This document shows, piece after piece, positions 3,955-52,880 of a stretch of 64,000 nucleotides of DNA. A program made the position numbers and the translations under genes. Origin of the DNA: Escherichia coli (lineage in GTDB: Bacteria > Pseudomonadota > Gammaproteobacteria > Enterobacterales > Enterobacteriaceae); NCBI RefSeq assembly GCF_001677475.2, contig NZ_CP015229.1. One strand, written 5' to 3'. Each line of letters starts with the position of its first letter. Position 1 is the first letter of the stretch. Under the pieces are notes generated by a model. That model was not told the origin of the DNA and made no database searches. It saw only the letters and a program-made list of their open reading frames with translations.

Positions 3955-4041
3955 TGGTACCCGGAGCGGGACTTGAACCCGCACAGCGCGAACGCCGAGG
4001 GATTTTAAATCCCTTGTGTCTACCGATTCCACCATCCGGGC
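3955..4041 (-). tRNA. leuZ: tRNA-Leu (anticodon TAA)
   Basis: Reverse complement reads GCCCGGATGGTGGAATCGGTAGACACAAGGGATTTAAAATCCC...GGGTACCA; cloverleaf and CCA end. Confidence 0.93.
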
Positions 4042-4053
4042 TCGGGAAGAAAG

Positions 4054-4127
4054 TGGAGGCGCGTTCCGGAGTCGAACCGGACTAGACGGATTTGCAATCC
4101 GCTACATAACCGCTTTGTTAACGCGCC
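4054..4127 (-). tRNA. cysT: tRNA-Cys (anticodon GCA)
   Basis: Reverse complement reads GGCGCGTTAACAAAGCGGTTATGTAGCGGATTGCAAATCCGTC...CTCCA. Confidence 0.93.
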
Positions 4128-4180
4128 AAATTCTTCAGGCTTTTCAGCCAGACATCCGCTTACGCCGATGTCTTTTAAAC

Positions 4181-4256
<76 letters not shown>

Positions 4257-4407
4257 ATTCATCAAGCAATCAGTTAATCACTTGATTTTATTATCGTCTG
4301 GCAATCAGTGCCGCCGTTCGATGCGTTGCATTCTACTTACCTGGCGCGATGAGTCAACGATATTTTTCACCACTTTTGATCGTTTGCTGAAAATTGCGCC
4401 GAAACGA

Positions 4408-4956
4408 TCACTGATCAAGCAAATCTGCACGCGCAGCGCTCAAATATTGCAACATTGACCACAGAGTCAGTACCGCAGCCACAAAGAAAAGTGCAATACC
4501 GGCGTACTCAACCCAAATGTTCGGACGCCACAGCAGCCAGGCCAACGCCACCATCTGGGCAGTGGTTTTCACTTTCCCAATCCAGGAGACGGCCACGCTA
4601 CTGCGTTTACCCAACTCCGCCATCCATTCGCGTAGCGCAGAAATAATAATTTCACGGGCGATCATCGTTGCCGCCGGTAAGGTCACCCACCAGCTGTGAT
4701 AATGCTCGGTTACCAGCACCATGGCGATAGCCACGAGGACTTTATCTGCGACAGGGTCAAGGAAAGCACCAAACCGGGTACTCTGGTTCCAGCGGCGTGC
4801 CAGAAAACCATCGAACCAGTCAGTCACCGCCGCGACGCAGAAAATGAGCGCGGCGGCAAACGGCGACCAGGTGACAGGCAGATAAAAGACCAATACAAAG
4901 AATGGGATAAGGATGACACGGAACAGTGTAAGCAACGTAGGGATATTAAATTGCAT
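4408..4956 (-). CDS. pgsA: CDP-diacylglycerol--glycerol-3-phosphate 3-phosphatidyltransferase
   Basis: 182 aa membrane ORF with CDP-alcohol phosphotransferase motif (DxxDGxxAR); K-12 synteny. Confidence 0.92.
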
Positions 4957-5012
4957 AATGACGGGTAACTATCTGTTGTCAGTAAGATTACCCCTATGTT
5001 GCTACAGAGACA

Positions 5013-6845
5013 TCAATGTTTCAACGACCAGAAGATCTTTTCTGCCAGACCTTGCGAAATACCCGGCACTTTTGCAATTTCCTCGACGCTGGCGTTACGT
5101 AAACCTTGCAAACCGCCCATATATTTCAACAACATTTGCCGACGTTTTGGCCCGACGCCTTCAATGGTTTCCAGGGAACTGGTATTTTTGACCTTTGCCC
5201 GTTTTTTACGGTGCCCGCCAATCGCGTGATCGTGTGATTCATCGCGAATATGCTGGATAACATGCAGCGCGGGAGAATCTGGCGGCAAACTGAATCCCTC
5301 ACCTTCCGGCTCAAAGAACAGCGTTTCCAACCCTGCCTTCCTATCTGCACCTTTGGCAACGCCAAGTAGCAGCGGATGATTTTTATCCCATGAGACATCC
5401 AGTTCGGCGAAGACATTTTTCGCTTGCGCAAGCTGGCCTTTGCCGCCGTCAATAAGTATCACATCCGGGATCTTACTGTCGTCGATGGCTTTACCATAAC
5501 GCCGACGCAGCACCTGATTCATCGCCGCATAATCATCGCCCGGCGTAATGCCAGTAATGTTATAGCGCCGATACTCCGCACGCAGCGGGCCGTTAGCATC
5601 AAACACCACACAGGAGGCGACGGTTTGTTCACCCATGGTATGGCTGATGTCAAAGCATTCCATCCGCTTCACTTCCGGCAATTTCAACACGCTGGCAAGC
5701 GCTGTCAGCCGCTGGTGAACGGTAGATTGCTGCGAAAGTTTGCTGGTTAAGGCCGTCGCCGCATTGGTGCGCGCGAGTTTCAGATAACGCGCCCGATCGC
5801 CACGAGGTTTGGTTTGAACATTAATCTTGCGTCCCGCCAGTTCTGAAAGGGAATCGGCGAGCAGCGTTTTATCGCTAAGATTAAAATCGAGCAGGATCTC
5901 ACCCGGTAAGGTGCGCATCTGGCTGCCTTGTAAATAGAACTGACCTACGAAGGTTTCCACCACCTCGCTCAGTTCCGTACCGCCCGGCACTTTCGGGAAA
6001 TAGCTGCGGCTGCCGAGCACTTTACCCTGACGAATGAACAATACGTGGACACAAGCCATGCCCGCATCGAACGCCACACCAATAACGTCAAGGTCGTCGC
6101 CGGTATTGGACACAAACTGTTTTTCGGTGACGCGTCGCACCGCCTGAATTTGGTCGCGAATACGTGCCGCTTCTTCAAACTCCAGATTCTGGCTGGCAGT
6201 TTCCATACGGCTAATGAGTTGCGTAAGCACCTGATCATCTTTGCCAGACAAAAACAGGCGCACATACTCGACCTGCTGAGCGTATTCTTCTTCACTCACC
6301 AGTCCTTCAACGCACGGTCCCAGACAGCGCCCTATCTGATATTGCAGACACGGACGCGAGCGATTGCGATAAACACTATTTTCGCACTGGCGAATGGGGA
6401 AAATCTTTTGCAGTAGCGCCAGTGTTTCACGTACGGCATAGCCATTCGGGAACGGGCCGAAATATTCACCTTTGGCATGCTTCGCACCACGATGCATCGC
6501 CAGACGCGGGTGGGTATCGCCACTCAGGAAGATAAAGGGATAAGATTTATCATCGCGTAGCAAAACGTTGTAACGCGGCTGATAGAGTTTGATGTAGTTG
6601 TGTTCCAGCAACAGCGCTTCGGTTTCTGTATGAGTAACCGTTACATCAATTTGCTGGATCTGGGCGACCAGCGCTTCGGTTTTGCGCGAAGCGAGGTTGC
6701 TACGGAAATAGCTGGAAAGCCGTTTTTTCAGGTCTTTCGCTTTGCCGACATAGATAACCGTACCACCAGCATCGTACATGCGATAAACGCCTGGCTGGCT
6801 GGTTACGGTTTTTAAAAACGCTTTTGCGTCAAACTGATCACTCAC
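5013..6845 (-). CDS. uvrC: excinuclease ABC subunit C
   Basis: 610 aa ORF with GIY-YIG N-terminus ([16 protein letters not shown]). Confidence 0.95.
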
Positions 6846-42781: not shown

Positions 42782-42868
42782 AAATCCCGACCCTGAGGGG
42801 GTCGGGATGAAACTTGCTTAAGCAAGAAGCACTTAAAAAATTCGTTACACCAGGAAATCTGATGTGTT
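42782..42868 (-). ncRNA. dsrA: small regulatory RNA DsrA (rpoS activator / hns repressor)
   Basis: Reverse complement reads AACACATCAGATTTCCTGGTGTAACGAATTTTTTAAGTGCTTCTTGCTTAAGCAAGTTTCATCCCGACCCCCTCAGGGTCGGGATTT, the recalled DsrA sequence. Confidence 0.9.
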
Positions 42869-43047: not shown

Positions 43048-45572
<2,525 letters not shown>

Positions 45573-45742
45573 CCTGACGACTCCCAACCTGCTTTTTTAT
45601 GATTCTGGCATAACCCGGCGATAACGTACCGCAAAACAGCGATAATTTTATAATGGTGGCATGATAAGACGCGACTATCATTCATTGCAGGCATTGGCAC
45701 ACCAGGCTGGATGTGATCCGGCCTGGTGTTAATGATACCCTT

Positions 45743-45925
45743 TCAAACTTCTTCCGCAGGACGACTCCCCTCCCCCGGAACAAGCTCGGTTTCATGAAAA
45801 GCTTCGCGCTTGACCCCGTAACCGTCATACCAACGACACTCAACCATACCGCTGGAGTATCCAGTGACAATCATCCGCGGGCCGCCCTCTTTAACCGTAA
45901 CTTCCTCACTAACCATAAAGCTCAT
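45743..45925 (-). CDS. yodC: uncharacterized protein YodC
   Basis: 60 aa. Confidence 0.8.
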   Translation of the reverse strand: MSFMVSEEVTVKEGGPRMIVTGYSSGMVECRWYDGYGVKREAFHETELVPGEGSRPAEEV

Positions 45926-46003
45926 ACTCGCCTCCTTTTTTCGAGTGAAACTTGTTCACCTTAGTTGAAGATGGCGAATTTTGCATAATAGCCAGTGCGA
46001 GTA

Positions 46004-46921
46004 TTAATGTGCCTGACCGCGCATTTTCGCTACTGCTTTCACTCCCAGCACCACGATGCCGCCGATGATAAATCCAAGAATCAGATTTAAAATAGTCGGT
46101 AATATCATCGCCACCACTGCACTTTGCTGCCCGGCGAAATGTTCAATGGCGTGATGCAACGGCGCAATACCATGTACCACAATCCCGCCGCCGACGAGGA
46201 ACATCGCCAGCGTACCGACAATCGATAACGCTTTCATCAACCAGGGCGCGATAATCAATAACCCTTTACCTAATGCCTGCATCAGCGCGCTGGATTTTTC
46301 CGCCAGCCAATACCCCAGGTCATCAATCTTAACGATAACCCCTACCAGACCGTAGACGCCCACGGTCACTACCAGCGCGATGCCTGAAAGCACCAGCACC
46401 TGATTAAGCAACGGCGCTTCTGCCACAATCCCCAGCGTGATGGCGACGATTTCCGCAGACAATATAAAATCGGTACGAATCGCCCCTTTTATTTTGTCCT
46501 TTTCAAACTTCAGCGGATCCTGCGCCGCCAGCTTCTCCAGACGCTGCTGACTCTGCGCCGGATCTTCTTTATGTTTACGCGCCTCCAGCATATGCAGCAC
46601 TTTCTCTACCCCTTCAAAGCAGAGAAACGCGCCGCCAATCATCAACAGTGGTGTAATCGCCCACGGGATAAACGCACTGATGATCAGCGCCAGCGGCACC
46701 AGAATCACTTTATTGATCAGCGATCCTTTCGCCACGCCCCAGACCACGGGAAGTTCCCGGTTGGCCCGCACGCCTGAAACTTGTTGCGCATTGAGCGATA
46801 AGTCATCCCCTAATACACCGGCGGTTTTCTTCGCCGCCAGTTTGCCCATCACGGAAATATCGTCCAGCAGTGTGGCGATATCATCGAGCAACGTCAGTAA
46901 ACTACTCCCGGCCAAAAGCAT
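46004..46921 (-). CDS. yedI: inner membrane protein YedI (DUF808)
   Basis: 305 aa membrane ORF. Confidence 0.9.
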
Positions 46922-47093
46922 TCCCTCTCATTTTTATTGTTGAAGGGTGTAAGTATGAAGCAAAAACGGCAGCTCTGATACTTGCTTCACAGGTCAACAT
47001 TTTTTTAACAATCAAGTGCAATTATATCTCTCGCCAGCAGAATGATTTTCACGTTTACTATGACCCACCTTTTTATTTCCACCGTGAGGGATT

Positions 47094-48014
47094 ATGCGTT
47101 TCCGCCAGTTATTACCGCTTTTTGGCGCGCTGTTTGCGTTGTATATCATTTGGGGCTCAACCTATTTTGTCATTCGGATTGGCGTGGAAAGCTGGCCGCC
47201 GTTAATGATGGCGGGCGTGCGATTCCTGGCAGCCGGTATTTTATTGCTGGCATTTTTGCTACTGCGCGGACACAAACTTCCCCCGCTACGTCCGCTGCTC
47301 AATGCCGCGCTGATTGGCCTGTTATTGCTGGCTGTCGGTAATGGCATGGTGACGGTTGCCGAACATCAAAATGTTCCTTCCGGCATCGCCGCCGTAGTGG
47401 TTGCAACCGTGCCTCTCTTTACCCTGTGCTTCAGCCGCCTGTTTGGCATTAAAACGCGCAAACTGGAATGGGTGGGTATCGCCATTGGGCTTGCCGGAAT
47501 CATCATGCTCAATAGCGGTGGAAATTTAAGCGGCAATCCGTGGGGCGCGATTCTGATTTTAATCGGCTCGATTAGCTGGGCGTTTGGCTCGGTTTATGGC
47601 TCGCGCATTACCTTACCTGTAGGGATGATGGCGGGTGCGATTGAGATGCTGGCGGCAGGCGTGGTGTTAATGATTGCGTCGATGATTGCGGGTGAAAAAC
47701 TGACGGCGCTCCCTTCTCTTTCAGGCTTCCTTGCGGTCGGCTATCTGGCGCTGTTTGGTTCGATTATCGCCATTAACGCTTATATGTATTTAATCCGCAA
47801 CGTCAGTCCGGCTCTCGCCACCAGCTACGCCTACGTTAACCCGGTGGTCGCGGTCTTGCTGGGTACGGGACTGGGCGGAGAGACGCTGTCGAAGATTGAA
47901 TGGCTGGCGCTCGGCGTAATTGTCTTCGCAGTGGTACTGGTCACGTTGGGAAAATATCTCTTCCCGGCCAAACCCGTAGTTGCGCCAGTTATTCAGGACG
48001 CATCAAGCGAGTAA
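47094..48014 (+). CDS. yedA: EamA-family transporter YedA
   Basis: 306 aa ten-helix membrane ORF. Confidence 0.9.
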   Translation: MRFRQLLPLFGALFALYIIWGSTYFVIRIGVESWPPLMMAGVRFLAAGILLLAFLLLRGHKLPPLRPLLNAALIGLLLLAVGNGMVTVAEHQNVPSGIAAVVVATVPLFTLCFSRLFGIKTRKLEWVGIAIGLAGIIMLNSGGNLSGNPWGAILILIGSISWAFGSVYGSRITLPVGMMAGAIEMLAAGVVLMIASMIAGEKLTALPSLSGFLAVGYLALFGSIIAINAYMYLIRNVSPALATSYAYVNPVVAVLLGTGLGGETLSKIEWLALGVIVFAVVLVTLGKYLFPAKPVVAPVIQDASSE

Positions 48015-48473
48015 TTGAATCCCCTGCGTGTCGATCTGCGCGCTGGCACCTTCGCCGCAGATCCACTCTTCCAGACGCTCGCTAAGCGCTTCATCCGTCA
48101 GCTTCTCGCGCCCACGTAACGCACACTCCCAGACAATCAGTACGCGCCAGCCAAGCTCCTGCAATCGACTGAGATCACGGCGATCCCGCTCAACATTTTT
48201 ACTTATCTTCTCCAGCCAGAACTCGGTTCGAGTCGCAGGCACTTTAAACAGATAGCAGTGATGATGATGCCAGAAGCAGCCATGGGTAAATATCACGCAG
48301 CGATATTCATCAACGACAAAATCCGGGCGTCCGGGGAGATCCGCGTCCTGAACGCGAAACGCCAGGCCCTGCCCGGTTAACAGACTGGCCAGGCGCTTCT
48401 CAATCGCCGTATCACGCGTGGCAATCGCGCGCATATTTTTGCTGCGAGTGGCCTTATCGTGAACGTCGGCCAT
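48003..48473 (-). CDS. vsr: very-short-patch repair endonuclease Vsr
   Basis: Start at [17 protein letters not shown] (156 aa); overlaps dcm 3' end as in K-12. Confidence 0.93.
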
Positions 48474-49872
48474 GTTGTGCCTCTTGCTGACGCAACGCCA
48501 CCGCCTGTTTGATTTTTGGCTCAAGCAGTTTTGCCACCGCGGCAAAGACCGGCACGACCACCGAGTTACCGAACTGGCGATAGGCCTGAGTGTCCGAAAC
48601 CGGAATGCGGAATTTCGCTTCTCCCGGCGCTTCAAAACCCATTAAGCGCGCGCATTCACGGGGCGTTAACCGACGTGGACGATGTTGCTGATTCTGCGGA
48701 TCGTCAAAGTCTTTCTCACCTTTGGCCATATCCCAGCCGCGATCGATTAAAATTTCCGCGCCATCTTTGTAATAACGCGCAGACAGCGTACGCGTGACGC
48801 TTTGCGGATTGTTCGGATAAACCATTCCATAACCGAAGCCGTTACCGCGCGCCTGATGTTTTTTCGCATATCGATAGAGGTACTTCCACAGCACCGGCGT
48901 CAGGATATATTTCGCCTCGACCATCGGGTCCAGCAGCTGCGCCAGCGTCACTCGCTGCGCAGGGAAACATTCGCTGATATCACGCAGGGTAAAATCGGCT
49001 TTCAGATTCAGATCGCGACGAAAACCCACCAGCACGATGCGTTCACGGTGCTGCGGCAGAAAATGTTTGCCGTCGATGATTTTCGGATCGTCTGGCCCGT
49101 TATCTTCTGCATCAGCCACGTCATAGCCCAGTTCGTCCAGCGTCTGCATGATGATGCGGAACGTTTTACCCTGGTCGTGACTTTTCAGGTTTTTGACGTT
49201 TTCGAGCACAAACATCGCCGGACGACGCGCGTCGATAATGCGTACCACATCAAAGAACAGCGTGCCCTGGGTATCGCAGGCAAAACCGTGCGCCCGCCCG
49301 AGCGAGTTCTTTTTCGATACGCCAGCCAGCGAAAATGGCTGACAAGGGAAACCGGCCAGTAAAACATCGTGTTCAGGAATGTGTTGACGAATATGTTCCG
49401 CCGCCGCCTCATCACTCACTCCTTCTTTATGGCTGAGGGTGATGTCGCGGACATCTTCATTAAAACGATGCGTCGCCGGGTCGCAATAATGATTGGCTTT
49501 ATAAGTGCGTACCGCATGTTTGTTCCATTCGCTGGTAAACACGCACTGTCCGCCAATCGATTCAAAACCGCGACGGATGCCGCCAATTCCGGCGAATAGA
49601 TCGATAAAGCGAAACGCATAATGCGGATGATGTGCCGGTGGTTTGGGTAACAACGTTTGCAGATGGGCGAACTCTTTCTCACTTAAACGGTGCCATGCCG
49701 AGTCATTCGCCAGCGCACGTTTTAAAATTGCCGCGCTCCAGTGATTCTCACCCACACCATTAAGCTGCGCCACCAGCGTTTTAACATCATAAATTTGCAG
49801 CAGTTTCTCCAGCATTGCCTGTGCGGCATTCCCGGTGCTGTATGAATCGGTTACTGATATATTTTCCTGCAT
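48454..49872 (-). CDS. dcm: DNA-cytosine C5 methyltransferase Dcm
   Basis: 472 aa with motif I (DLFAGIGG) and PCQPFS catalytic motif. Confidence 0.95.
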
Positions 49873-49938
49873 AGATTTAACCGGCCATCTGAGATGGCCG
49901 ACAGGTTAACATAATTACAGCCATTTAGGGCCACGCGC

Positions 49939-50634
49939 TCAGCCCGCGGGTGAAAACGCATCTATCACCTTGTGATCGACACCTTCATTCTCCCCCGCCA
50001 GTTCGGCACTGAGCTTCGCCATAAACTCGACTAAAAAATGCGCGTTGTGCTGCGCCAGCTGCTTGCCTCTTGCGGTTTGCATGGTTTGCGGTAGCTTCAG
50101 CAACTTAGTCTGGAAATGATCCAGCGCGTAACGTTTATCATCAAGCGGGCGATGCTGTGCGAACGGATCTTCGCCATCAAACAGCGCCACGCCCAATGCC
50201 CCTGAAACGGCAAACACGCGCGCCAGGCCAATCGCCCCCAGGGCTTCCAGCCGATCCGCATCCTGGACGATTTTAGCTTCCGTTGTTAAGGGGGCGATTT
50301 GCGCGCTGAAACTGTGAGCGGCAATGGCATGACAAACGGCCTCGATTTTCTCCGCCGGAAATTGCGCGAACTCTTCACGGAGCAGGCGACGCGTCTCTTC
50401 TGCCGCCAGGATTGAAGAACGCTGCCTTTGCGGATGATTTTTCGCCAGGCTCACAATATCGTGAAAATAACAGGCGGTTAAAATCACCAGCATATCGACG
50501 TCATCATCTGCCGCCAGCTTCTGTGCCGTAGCCCAGACGCGGCGAAAATGACACACGTCATGGGCCGCGTCCTGGTGCTGATGATGGTTTTTCAACCAGT
50601 TTTCGAACTGTGCCTGCCAGTGTTGTAAGTCCAT
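49939..50634 (-). CDS. yedJ: HD-domain phosphohydrolase YedJ
   Basis: Start at [14 protein letters not shown]. Confidence 0.9.
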
Positions 50635-50673
50635 ACGCGCTCCGTTGCCAAAGAGTCGCAACCTTAGCAGTTT

Positions 50674-51057
50674 TTATTCATAGCGTCTGCTACGTGCGGG
50701 ACGAGGTCGGGTGTACCAGGCAATGCTGCCTAACAATGCCCCGACCAGAGCCATAAATAAAAATCCGACCAGTGCCCCTAACCACTTTCCCGCGGTAGAT
50801 CCTAAATCGCTTTCAAATCCCGACACCGGGGCATCGGGGATCCGGCTCATCACCCAGATGTAACGCGCCATTGCCCAGACGAAATAGCCACACCATGTAT
50901 AGAAAGCCCACAAAGCCAATTTGCCGCCAGGGCTGCGAGAGAGTCTCTCTTCCATCTTTGTCGAACCGTATTCCATTTTGAGATAACCCGGAAAATTCAG
51001 ACTTAGTACTATTATGTGATAAAAGTCACATTTTTCCACATTGGATGAGCCAGTCAA
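50674..51057 (-). CDS. yedR: inner membrane protein YedR
   Basis: ORF with two TM helices; start codon uncertain. Confidence 0.75.
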   Translation of the reverse strand: MTGSSNVEKCDFYHIIVLSLNFPGYLKMEYGSTKMEERLSRSPGGKLALWAFYTWCGYFVWAMARYIWVMSRIPDAPVSGFESDLGSTAGKWLGALVGFLFMALVGALLGSIAWYTRPRPARSRRYE

Positions 51058-51604
51058 GACTCACTCATTTTTTGAACAAATAGATAATTTTTGCGCAACG
51101 GCAGTGAATACAGGAAAAATCGTTTTGAGTGATTTTATTTATCTTTGATATCAGCTTTATTAATTCATTCAATCAATATATTAGCACTGATTACAATTAT
51201 ACCTTTTTATTATTCTGTGTCATGATGCCTCCGTTATTAGCCTTTTATCGTCTTGTTTATATTTTTAGGGCCGGCATGATGCCGGCTTTTTTTTATGCCT
51301 TCATTAATGTGCGCGAGATCACACCAGCCGTTTGGCGCAACAATCATTGATACTCCCTATCTTTCCGCTCAACGCATAACACATTGATATACAATTATAG
51401 TTTTCATGAATACTTATATTTAGAACTCATAATCCTGAATTATATTAAATAGATTAGAAACATTTTGAAATCTTTTAAATACATTTGTTACATGTAATCT
51501 TTAAAATAAAATGAACTTCATAGAATAGTATCCAAATGTGCTTTTTTTGGATAACGGCACTTATTGATATATTCATGAAGATTATAATCACAAGGGAATA
51601 CATA

Positions 51605-52798
51605 ATGAAAAGAAAAGTTCTGGCAATGCTGGTCCCGGCGTTATTAGTTGCTGGCGCAGCAAATGCGGCTGAAGTCTATAATAAAGATGGTAATAAACTG
51701 GATTTCTACGGAAAAGTAGCAGGTCTGCACTACTTCTCTGACAACTCGGGCGCTGATGGCGATATGTCATATGCCCGTATCGGTTTCAAAGGCGAAACAC
51801 AAATCGCTGACCAGTTCACTGGTTACGGTCAGTGGGAATACAACCTACAAGCAAATGGCACAGAAGGCGATGGAGATAACTCTGCTACCCGTCTGGCATT
51901 CGCAGGTTTAGGTTTTGGTCAGAATGGTACTTTCGATTATGGTCGTAACTACGGTGTCGTATATGACATCGAAGCATGGACCGATATGCTGCCAGAATTT
52001 GGTGGCGATACCTACGCGGGTGCCGACAACTTCATGAACGGTCGTACCAACGGTGTTGCAACCTACCGTAACAATGGCTTCTTTGGTCAGGTTGATGGCT
52101 TGAACTTTGCTTTGCAATATCAGGGTAATAATGAAAGTGGTGGACCATTCGGGCAGGAAGGTTCCGGTAGTGGTGATGGCCGTAGCCTTTCCAAAGAAAA
52201 TGGTGATGGTTTCGGTATGTCAACATCCTACGACTTCGACTTCGGTTTAAGTCTGGGTGCTGCATATTCAAACTCTGATCGTTCAGATCGTCAGGTTGGA
52301 GTTGGTTTAAATGATCGTAACCATAGCAACAGAAATGCTGGTGGTGAAACCGCTGAAGCATGGACTGTTGGTGCAAAATATGATGCTAATAATGTGTATT
52401 TAGCAGCTATGTACGCTGAAACTCGCAATATGACCCCATATGGTGGTGGCGAGTTTGATAATGGTGAATCAAGATCAGCCATCGCTAACAAAACCCAAAA
52501 CTTTGAAGTTGTTGCTCAGTATCAGTTCGACTTCGGTCTGCGCCCGTCCATCGCTTACTTGCAATCTAAAGGTAAGGATTTAGGCGGTTGGGCTCATGAC
52601 GGTAATGGCGATCCGCGTTACACCAACAAAGATCTGGTTAAATATGTTGAAGTCGGTGCGACCTACTACTTCAACAAAAATATGTCCACCTACGTTGATT
52701 ACAAAATCAACCTGCTGGACAACGATGATGACTTCTACGAAGCAAACGGCATCGCTACCGATGACATCGTTGCTGTGGGCTTAGTCTACCAGTTCTAA
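51605..52798 (+). CDS. OmpC/OmpF-family outer-membrane porin (yedS/ompN-like), apparently intact
   Basis: Signal peptide [21 protein letters not shown], beta-barrel porin sequence, C-terminal aromatic YQF. Confidence 0.88.
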
Positions 52799-52842
52799 TC
52801 AGCCAACGCGCTGCGGCGTGTTACTGTAAAACTTAACACTAG

Positions 52843-52880
52843 CCTGAGTTCGTCCCTCATCGAACTCAGGCTTTTTTATT
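52843..52880 (+). terminator. rho-independent terminator after porin gene
   Basis: cctgagttcg...cgaactcagg hairpin plus cttttttatt. Confidence 0.75.

Follow-up and report, generated by a model that had tools for sequence, protein, structure and literature searches.

The window, that is, the whole stretch of 64,000 nucleotides of Escherichia coli DNA that was analysed, carries yedJ and drpB (yedR) on the minus strand, followed by the small RNA gene rseX on the plus strand, a porin gene, hchA, and hprS. The porin gene lies between drpB(yedR)/rseX and hchA, on the same strand as rseX and hchA. In K-12, the gene yedS (b4496), annotated as a pseudogene, sits in the identical order drpB - rseX - yedS - hchA, with rseX annotated at an equal relative position. 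The gene in the window is an intact allele of yedS and the positional orthologue of K-12 b4496. Its features are listed below, with coordinates counted from the first base of the window; conservation across genera refers to alignment A4, which comprises 12 yedJ-linked porin loci from 6 genera.

51204-51293, plus strand: rseX small RNA gene (Rfam RF01401, 98.7 bits against a gathering score of 50, full model 1-94)
51305-51325, minus strand: CRP-type palindrome, ggTGTGAtctcgcGCACAtta, of the form TGTGA-N6-GCACA, read from the sequence
51457-51535, plus strand: putative promoter/regulatory block kept across genera (alignment A4)
51592-51597, plus strand: Shine-Dalgarno sequence AAGGGA, 7 nt 5' of the start codon; AAGG is invariant in alignment A4
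51605-52798, plus strand: yedS coding sequence, 397 codons and a stop
51605-51667, plus strand: signal peptide of 21 aa, ending ANA/AE with cleavage between; alignments to the mature chains of solved porins begin at query residue 22
52088-52090, plus strand: codon 162, CAG (Gln) in the window and TAG (amber) in K-12, from the alignment to K-12 yedS
52267-52268, plus strand: codon 221, TT within TATTCA, of which K-12 lacks one T, giving a -1 frameshift (same alignment)
52841-52881, plus strand: yedS intrinsic terminator with a 12-bp stem, an 8-nt loop, and a U-tract

Coding Sequence, Start Site, and Terminator

The coding sequence runs from an ATG at 51605 to a TAA at 52796-52798, with zero internal stops in both the list of open reading frames and the raw sequence. 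Inspection of the 397 codons found neither an internal stop nor a frameshift, the marks of a pseudogene and the very defects that a sequence-only reading of this DNA had named as able to overturn its claim of a continuous 397-aa porin frame. That claim holds, as do its accompanying observations of a signal peptide (with the ANA/AE cleavage site), a terminal Phe (the protein ends in ...GLVYQF), and a strong terminator. The last of these is a hairpin at 52841-52872 that begins 43 bases past the stop codon and consists of a perfect 12-bp stem followed by UUUUUUAUU; its minimum free energy of -21.5 kcal/mol (z = -6.3) was equalled by 0 of 200 shuffles.

The mechanically called open reading frame is longer, beginning at 51536 and encoding 420 aa, and some database entries carry 405-aa versions that start from an ATG at 51575. 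Both of these upstream starts were rejected, being neither conserved in alignment A4 nor preceded by a Shine-Dalgarno site. The start at 51605 is supported because of the spacing of AAGGGA, the match to the processed N-termini of solved porins, and conservation between genera: the ATGAAAAGAAAAGT start and the Shine-Dalgarno site are kept across six genera, while the upstream ATGs are not.

Protein Family and Predicted Structure

YedS matches the Pfam family Porin_1 (PF00267) with an E-value of 5.9e-144 over residues 27-397, covering the whole profile (1-337 of 337), and scores 541 bits against the NCBIfam subfamily model NF007841 'porin OmpC', for which the cut-off is 484. Solved porins matching it with E < 1e-20 number 48, the closest being OmpK37 of K. 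pneumoniae (PDB 6V78, E 1e-146). Alignment to the K-12 porins, which the sequence-only reading had recommended for OmpN and OmpC, gave identities of 71% for OmpN, 68% for OmpC, 63% for OmpF, and 62% for PhoE. In the alignment of YedS with these four proteins, residues K37, R58, R96, R155, D127, and E131 and the terminal F are invariant, as is the PEFGG motif of the constriction loop L3 (P130-E131-F132-G133-G134).

An AlphaFold model of YedS, built from a 38-sequence alignment, contains 16 long strands and an N-terminal closing piece (pLDDT 73, pTM 0.74), with low confidence confined to the signal peptide and the surface loops L2, L4, L5, and L6. Foldseek searches with this model returned OmpK37, OmpC, OmpK36, and OmpF with target-normalised TM-scores of 0.88-0.91, the value for OmpK37 being 0.88. 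The full-length profile match, the 16 strands, the acidic and basic residues of L3, the Sec signal, and the C-terminal aromatic residue, by which the machinery of outer-membrane assembly recognises its substrates, were thus all found, and the window gene encodes a general porin belonging to the OmpC/OmpN subfamily. YedS shares its fold and pore architecture with the quiescent general porins OmpN and OmpK37, whereas L5 and L6 are longer in YedS than in OmpN, with insertions at residues ~232-239 and 285-292.

Lesions of the K-12 Allele and Prior Knowledge of the Intact Gene

The window sequence and K-12 yedS share 94.2% nucleotide identity over 100% of the query, with 70 differences in 1194 nt, one indel included. 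The statement in the sequence-only reading that K-12 carries this gene in disrupted form proved accurate, and the alignment to the K-12 gene that it proposed located the damage in an amber at codon 162 and a -1 frameshift at codon 221, both absent from the window. In agreement with this, RefSeq flags the locus of a K-12-lineage O16:H48 genome as 'frameshifted; internal stop'. The K-12 gene is like that of the window in position, promoter region, signal peptide, and 94% of its DNA, and unlike it in the two lesions; apart from these, 16 amino-acid differences separate the two, most of them at residues 34-93 near L1 and L2.

Short diagnostic queries were matched exactly against complete genomes, a 61-mer being used at the amber site. 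The K-12 amber version was found in 357 complete genomes, and at codon 221, the K-12 version occurred in 371 and the intact version in 134. Among the matches listed, the genomes carrying the exact K-12 versions are nearly all laboratory K-12 derivatives.

Many wild E. coli strains carry the intact form, and it is well represented in public data. The exact 397-aa protein occurs on 899 contigs (UniRef A0A0J2EH56), and thousands of related Escherichia and Shigella proteins bear names including 'outer membrane protein yedS', 'protein N', and 'S1'. At 100% identity, the yedS DNA of the window was found in no complete RefSeq E. coli genome, the best match being 99.2%; the nearest complete-genome alleles are 99.0-99.2% identical in DNA and annotated as an intact 'porin OmpC', a name given to close yedS alleles in hundreds of complete E. 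coli genomes. A clinical isolate resistant to carbapenems has been reported to possess a functional YedS (Warner et al. 2013, Antimicrob Agents Chemother 57:1935). The intact yedS is a correct re-discovery of a known strain difference, and there is nothing new in the finding as stated.

Allelic Variation at the Locus

Comparison with eight other Escherichia genomes revealed flanks, promoters, and signal peptides that are nearly identical (96-100% among E. coli), the signal peptide being 100% identical in all compared E. coli alleles. In the part encoding the mature porin (51656-52756), nucleotide identity drops to 40-60% in some strains. The state of the gene varies as follows.

Window and TB06051: yedS intact, 397 aa
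88COLEC: yedS intact, 395 aa
C21: yedS intact, 387 aa
CS6L: yedS intact, 357 aa, with VEWGG replacing PEFGG in L3
SCU-106: yedS intact, 352 aa, with VEWGG replacing PEFGG in L3
O157:H7: yedS frameshifted; drpB frameshifted too
HS: an N-terminally truncated yedS remnant directly 3' of an IS3-family transposase
K-12: yedS with a double lesion, amber and frameshift

The alleles of 352-357 aa that carry VEWGG pass no NCBIfam porin cut-off and belong to a different porin sub-type. Differences and indels between alleles cluster in the surface loops L1, L2, and L4-L7. Pairwise dS between E. coli yedS alleles ranges from 0.5 to >1, which looks far above what would generally be expected of E. coli core genes.

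The pattern has the look of a surface-exposed protein that has long been under diversifying selection or has been imported repeatedly, and that has also been lost more than once. From these comparisons, the chances seem evenly balanced that the locus is an allelic cassette on which diversifying or balancing selection has acted over a long time. If so, recurrent selection by phages, colicins, or host immunity would have acted on a porin that must then be expressed in nature. Such cassette behaviour seems to have received no systematic description in the literature searched, and it is the sole aspect of the locus that may deserve a dedicated population study. A relevance of YedS to phage and colicin receptors, raised in the sequence-only reading, is plausible because the differences between alleles are concentrated in surface loops.

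The Upstream Region

The rseX gene lies ~310 nt 5' of yedS on the same strand and carries its own terminator (stem 51267-51289). Pairing of a porin gene with a porin-regulating small RNA gene recurs in ompC/micF, ompN/micC, and yedS/rseX, the RseX RNA being Hfq-binding. Just past the rseX terminator, ~290 nt from the yedS start, is the CRP-type palindrome. A CRP site at 2033766 of K-12, listed beside yedS, was bound by CRP in vitro (Footprint-seq preprint, 2026; PMC12871828); the spacer of the window palindrome differs from that of this footprinted counterpart.

Closer to the gene, the 80-nt block at 51457-51535 is recognisable in all six aligned genera. It contains GAAAC/GAAAT/AATAC/GTTAC repeats at 51457-51499 that are OmpR-like, with a ~10-bp phasing resembling that of the OmpR sites of ompC and ompF, and a possible -10 element, TAGAAT, at 51521-51526. 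When the window was compared with E. albertii in bins, the promoter-proximal and signal-peptide bins (51456-51655) were 100% identical, as against 57-81% in neighbouring bins. A position weight matrix of OmpR binding was built from the six classical sites F1-F3 and C1-C3, with sequences verified in K-12; its best match, 8.5 bits, fell at 51457-51476. Control of yedS by OmpR may be treated as a lead rather than a result because 18% of shuffles score as high.

The upstream DNA of yedS is 28-29% GC in a window of 49% GC. In K-12, yedS is reportedly non-translated under normal circumstances and is said to be regulated through MarA and MicF. A search for RNA duplexes between MicF and the yedS region from -110 to +30 yielded a best pairing of -11.1 kcal/mol (z +0.75), not above chance, while the positive control ompF gave -27.4 kcal/mol (z -4.7). 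Simple MicF pairing at the yedS 5' UTR is therefore unsupported. RseX likewise showed no pairing above chance with the same region in this search (z -0.16). The rseX gene itself is under H-NS silencing, for which StpA acts as a back-up (PMC8313858).

Selection on yedS and Its Probable Function

Between the window and its nearest allele, 10 synonymous and 0 non-synonymous differences were counted. Against other alleles and orthologues, dN/dS of yedS is 0.07-0.13, with 0.01-0.08 in the barrel, the turns, and L3 and 0.13-0.23 in the surface loops. The gene is under purifying selection. The dN/dS of ~0.1 and the ratio of 10 to 0 argue, at the level of substitution patterns, for a working protein. 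The frequency of optimal codons (Fop) is 0.70 for yedS, 0.66 for the quiescent ompN, and 0.92 for ompC. Because the AT-rich upstream block is conserved across genera and codon bias is low, these data suggest that yedS may be a silenced, conditionally induced minor porin.

The alternative that has to be taken most seriously is that the open reading frame is intact by chance and that the gene, as in K-12, is permanently silent and decaying, a pseudogene in waiting. At least three separate inactivations show that the locus can be dispensed with: an amber and a frameshift in K-12, a frameshift in O157:H7, and IS3 truncation in strain HS. Its codon bias is modest, and its AT-rich upstream region is of the type silenced by H-NS (PMC8313858). 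Gradual decay is, however, at odds with 10 synonymous changes against none that alters the protein, with the overall dN/dS of ~0.1 and the 0.01-0.08 of the barrel, with the presence of the same protein on 899 contigs, with a promoter block that is identical in E. albertii (100%) and can be recognised in six genera, and with the functional YedS reported from a clinical isolate. Chance preservation is accordingly improbable, and the window very probably holds an intact, evolutionarily maintained yedS allele encoding a Sec-exported general diffusion porin.

The product of such an allele would be a Sec-exported, 16-stranded beta-barrel general diffusion porin, its pore lined by an L3 with PEFGG and the usual acidic and basic residues and its exterior presenting long, allele-specific surface loops L4-L7. 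Its level in laboratory conditions would be low, probably through silencing of the 28-29% GC upstream DNA by H-NS/StpA, a quiescence that may be likened to that of OmpN and of Salmonella OmpS1 and OmpS2. Induction might proceed via the conserved OmpR-like promoter block. When made, YedS could offer an alternative entry for small hydrophilic solutes, carbapenems included, as reported for the clinical isolate, and it would at the same time present phages, colicins, and antibodies with an additional target, and a variable one, on the cell surface.

Distinction from ompC and ompN

The yedS orthologues are named ompC by RefSeq, and the PGAP name 'porin OmpC' would make the gene a second copy or allele of ompC. 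The two proteins do belong to the same NCBIfam subfamily (NF007841 is passed by YedS with 541 bits against 484), with a near-identical signal peptide and near-identical barrel residues. This model does not discriminate, however: OmpN scores higher (594 bits), and a Klebsiella porin linked to yedJ reaches 572 bits. YedS has just 68% identity to K-12 OmpC and differs from it in Fop (0.70 versus 0.92 for OmpC) and in loops L4-L7. The true ompC adjoins micF, rcsD, and ftp in K-12, and neither micF nor rcsD is present in the window, an Rfam scan of which found no MicF over its whole length.

The other candidate is orthology to ompN, the closest E. coli paralogue in sequence. Of the K-12 porins, OmpN has the highest identity to YedS (71%), and OmpK37 is the best match in the PDB. 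The true ompN, nevertheless, adjoins micC, uspF, and ydbK in K-12, and none of the three is seen beside yedS in the window.

Both identities were examined in a scan of one genome per species, from which the best 80 loci were classed by their flanking genes. Among these loci, those of the ompC type are 63-69% identical to YedS and those of the ompN type (n = 25) 64-69%, while those linked to yedJ/drpB reach 75-90%. The yedJ/drpB-linked porins number 26 among the 80, at 64-90% identity, and occur in genera that include Escherichia, Citrobacter, Superficieibacter, Klebsiella, Enterobacter, Buttiauxella, Phytobacter, and Pluralibacter; every relative among the 80 that is at least 75% identical and has enough flanking sequence adjoins yedJ/drpB. 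E. coli E69 contains both types, a yedJ-linked copy at 90% and an ompN-type copy at 68%. On synteny, a second ompC is hardly credible, orthology to ompN is equally far-fetched, and both identities were rejected.

From these synteny classes and identity ranges, YedS falls into an old group of positional orthologues, the third besides OmpC and OmpN, made up of the porins linked to yedJ/drpB across Enterobacteriaceae. The RefSeq gene name 'ompC' for yedS is a naming artefact because NF007841, a subfamily model, gives genuine OmpN a higher score. Such naming is an annotation trap, through which many genomes seem to carry two ompC genes. The 'OmpC-family' label of the sequence-only reading can be kept in the sense of a subfamily, but of the E. 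coli paralogues OmpN (71%) is the closest, ahead of OmpC (68%), and the synteny fits neither.

Named Relatives in Other Genera

Members of the yedJ/drpB-linked group share with YedS the yedJ(-drpB) neighbour, the upstream block, and the MKRKVL signal peptide. Their identities to YedS are 75-82% in Citrobacter, 78% in Superficieibacter, and 68% in K. pneumoniae ATCC 13883, and further members are found in Enterobacter and Buttiauxella. Among the best 80 loci, hchA downstream and rseX upstream are confined to Escherichia; a detectable rseX was limited to E. coli E69 and E. albertii, with no more than an 18-nt fragment in Superficieibacter.

OmpN and OmpK37 stand at loci with uspF/ydbK/micC, compared with yedJ/drpB/rseX for yedS. 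OmpN resembles YedS in its low codon bias, and each of the two genes has an adjacent small RNA gene, micC for ompN and rseX for yedS. In K. pneumoniae ATCC 13883, a porin of 381 aa lies beside yedJ/drpB (positions 4001-5146 of the fetched locus). It is related but not identical to the crystallised OmpK37 (6V78). OmpK38 was set apart from OmpK37 by synteny in Rocker et al. 2020 (PMC7157821), and the Klebsiella yedJ-linked porin is probably this OmpK38; in that case, OmpK38 would correspond to YedS in position.

A link with Salmonella OmpS1 has been drawn by name. One paper (PMC2731931) lists the K-12 gene as 'yedS (ompS1)', and one source names a yedS allele 'outer membrane protein S1'. OmpS1 of Salmonella is a quiescent porin under H-NS/StpA silencing, with OmpR and LeuO as its activators (PMC4264507). 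Besides the naming, the likeness consists of the AT-rich upstream DNA with OmpR-like repeats in yedS; Salmonella loci were absent from the best 80 of the genome scan. Regulation of the OmpS1 type could be carried over to yedS by analogy only.

Significance and Other Features of the Window

The intact gene confirms that natural E. coli have a wider outer-membrane repertoire than K-12 represents. As published for one isolate, an intact YedS can matter for carbapenem susceptibility once OmpC and OmpF are lost. With its variable loops, YedS is a candidate antigen and a candidate receptor for phages or colicins. The finding is of modest practical value, and none of these implications is new for yedS.

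Over 44000-61200 of the window, the best complete RefSeq E. coli genome is 97.3-98.1% identical across 17 kb. Similarity to the best-matching E. coli genomes ends at ~61206, just past yodB, and in strain Ecol_545, prophage tail-fibre genes follow at the equivalent of this position. An IsrK RNA (72.9 bits) and a C4 antisense RNA (59 bits) lie side by side at 61240-61421 on the plus strand. This is probably where a prophage has its edge. Elsewhere, the DsrA small RNA gene (102.5 bits) was found at 42782-42868 and a cluster of three tRNA genes at 3958-4256, both on the minus strand; these are the ordinary context of the 43-min region of E. coli (fli, rcsA, dsrA, yedP, dgcQ).
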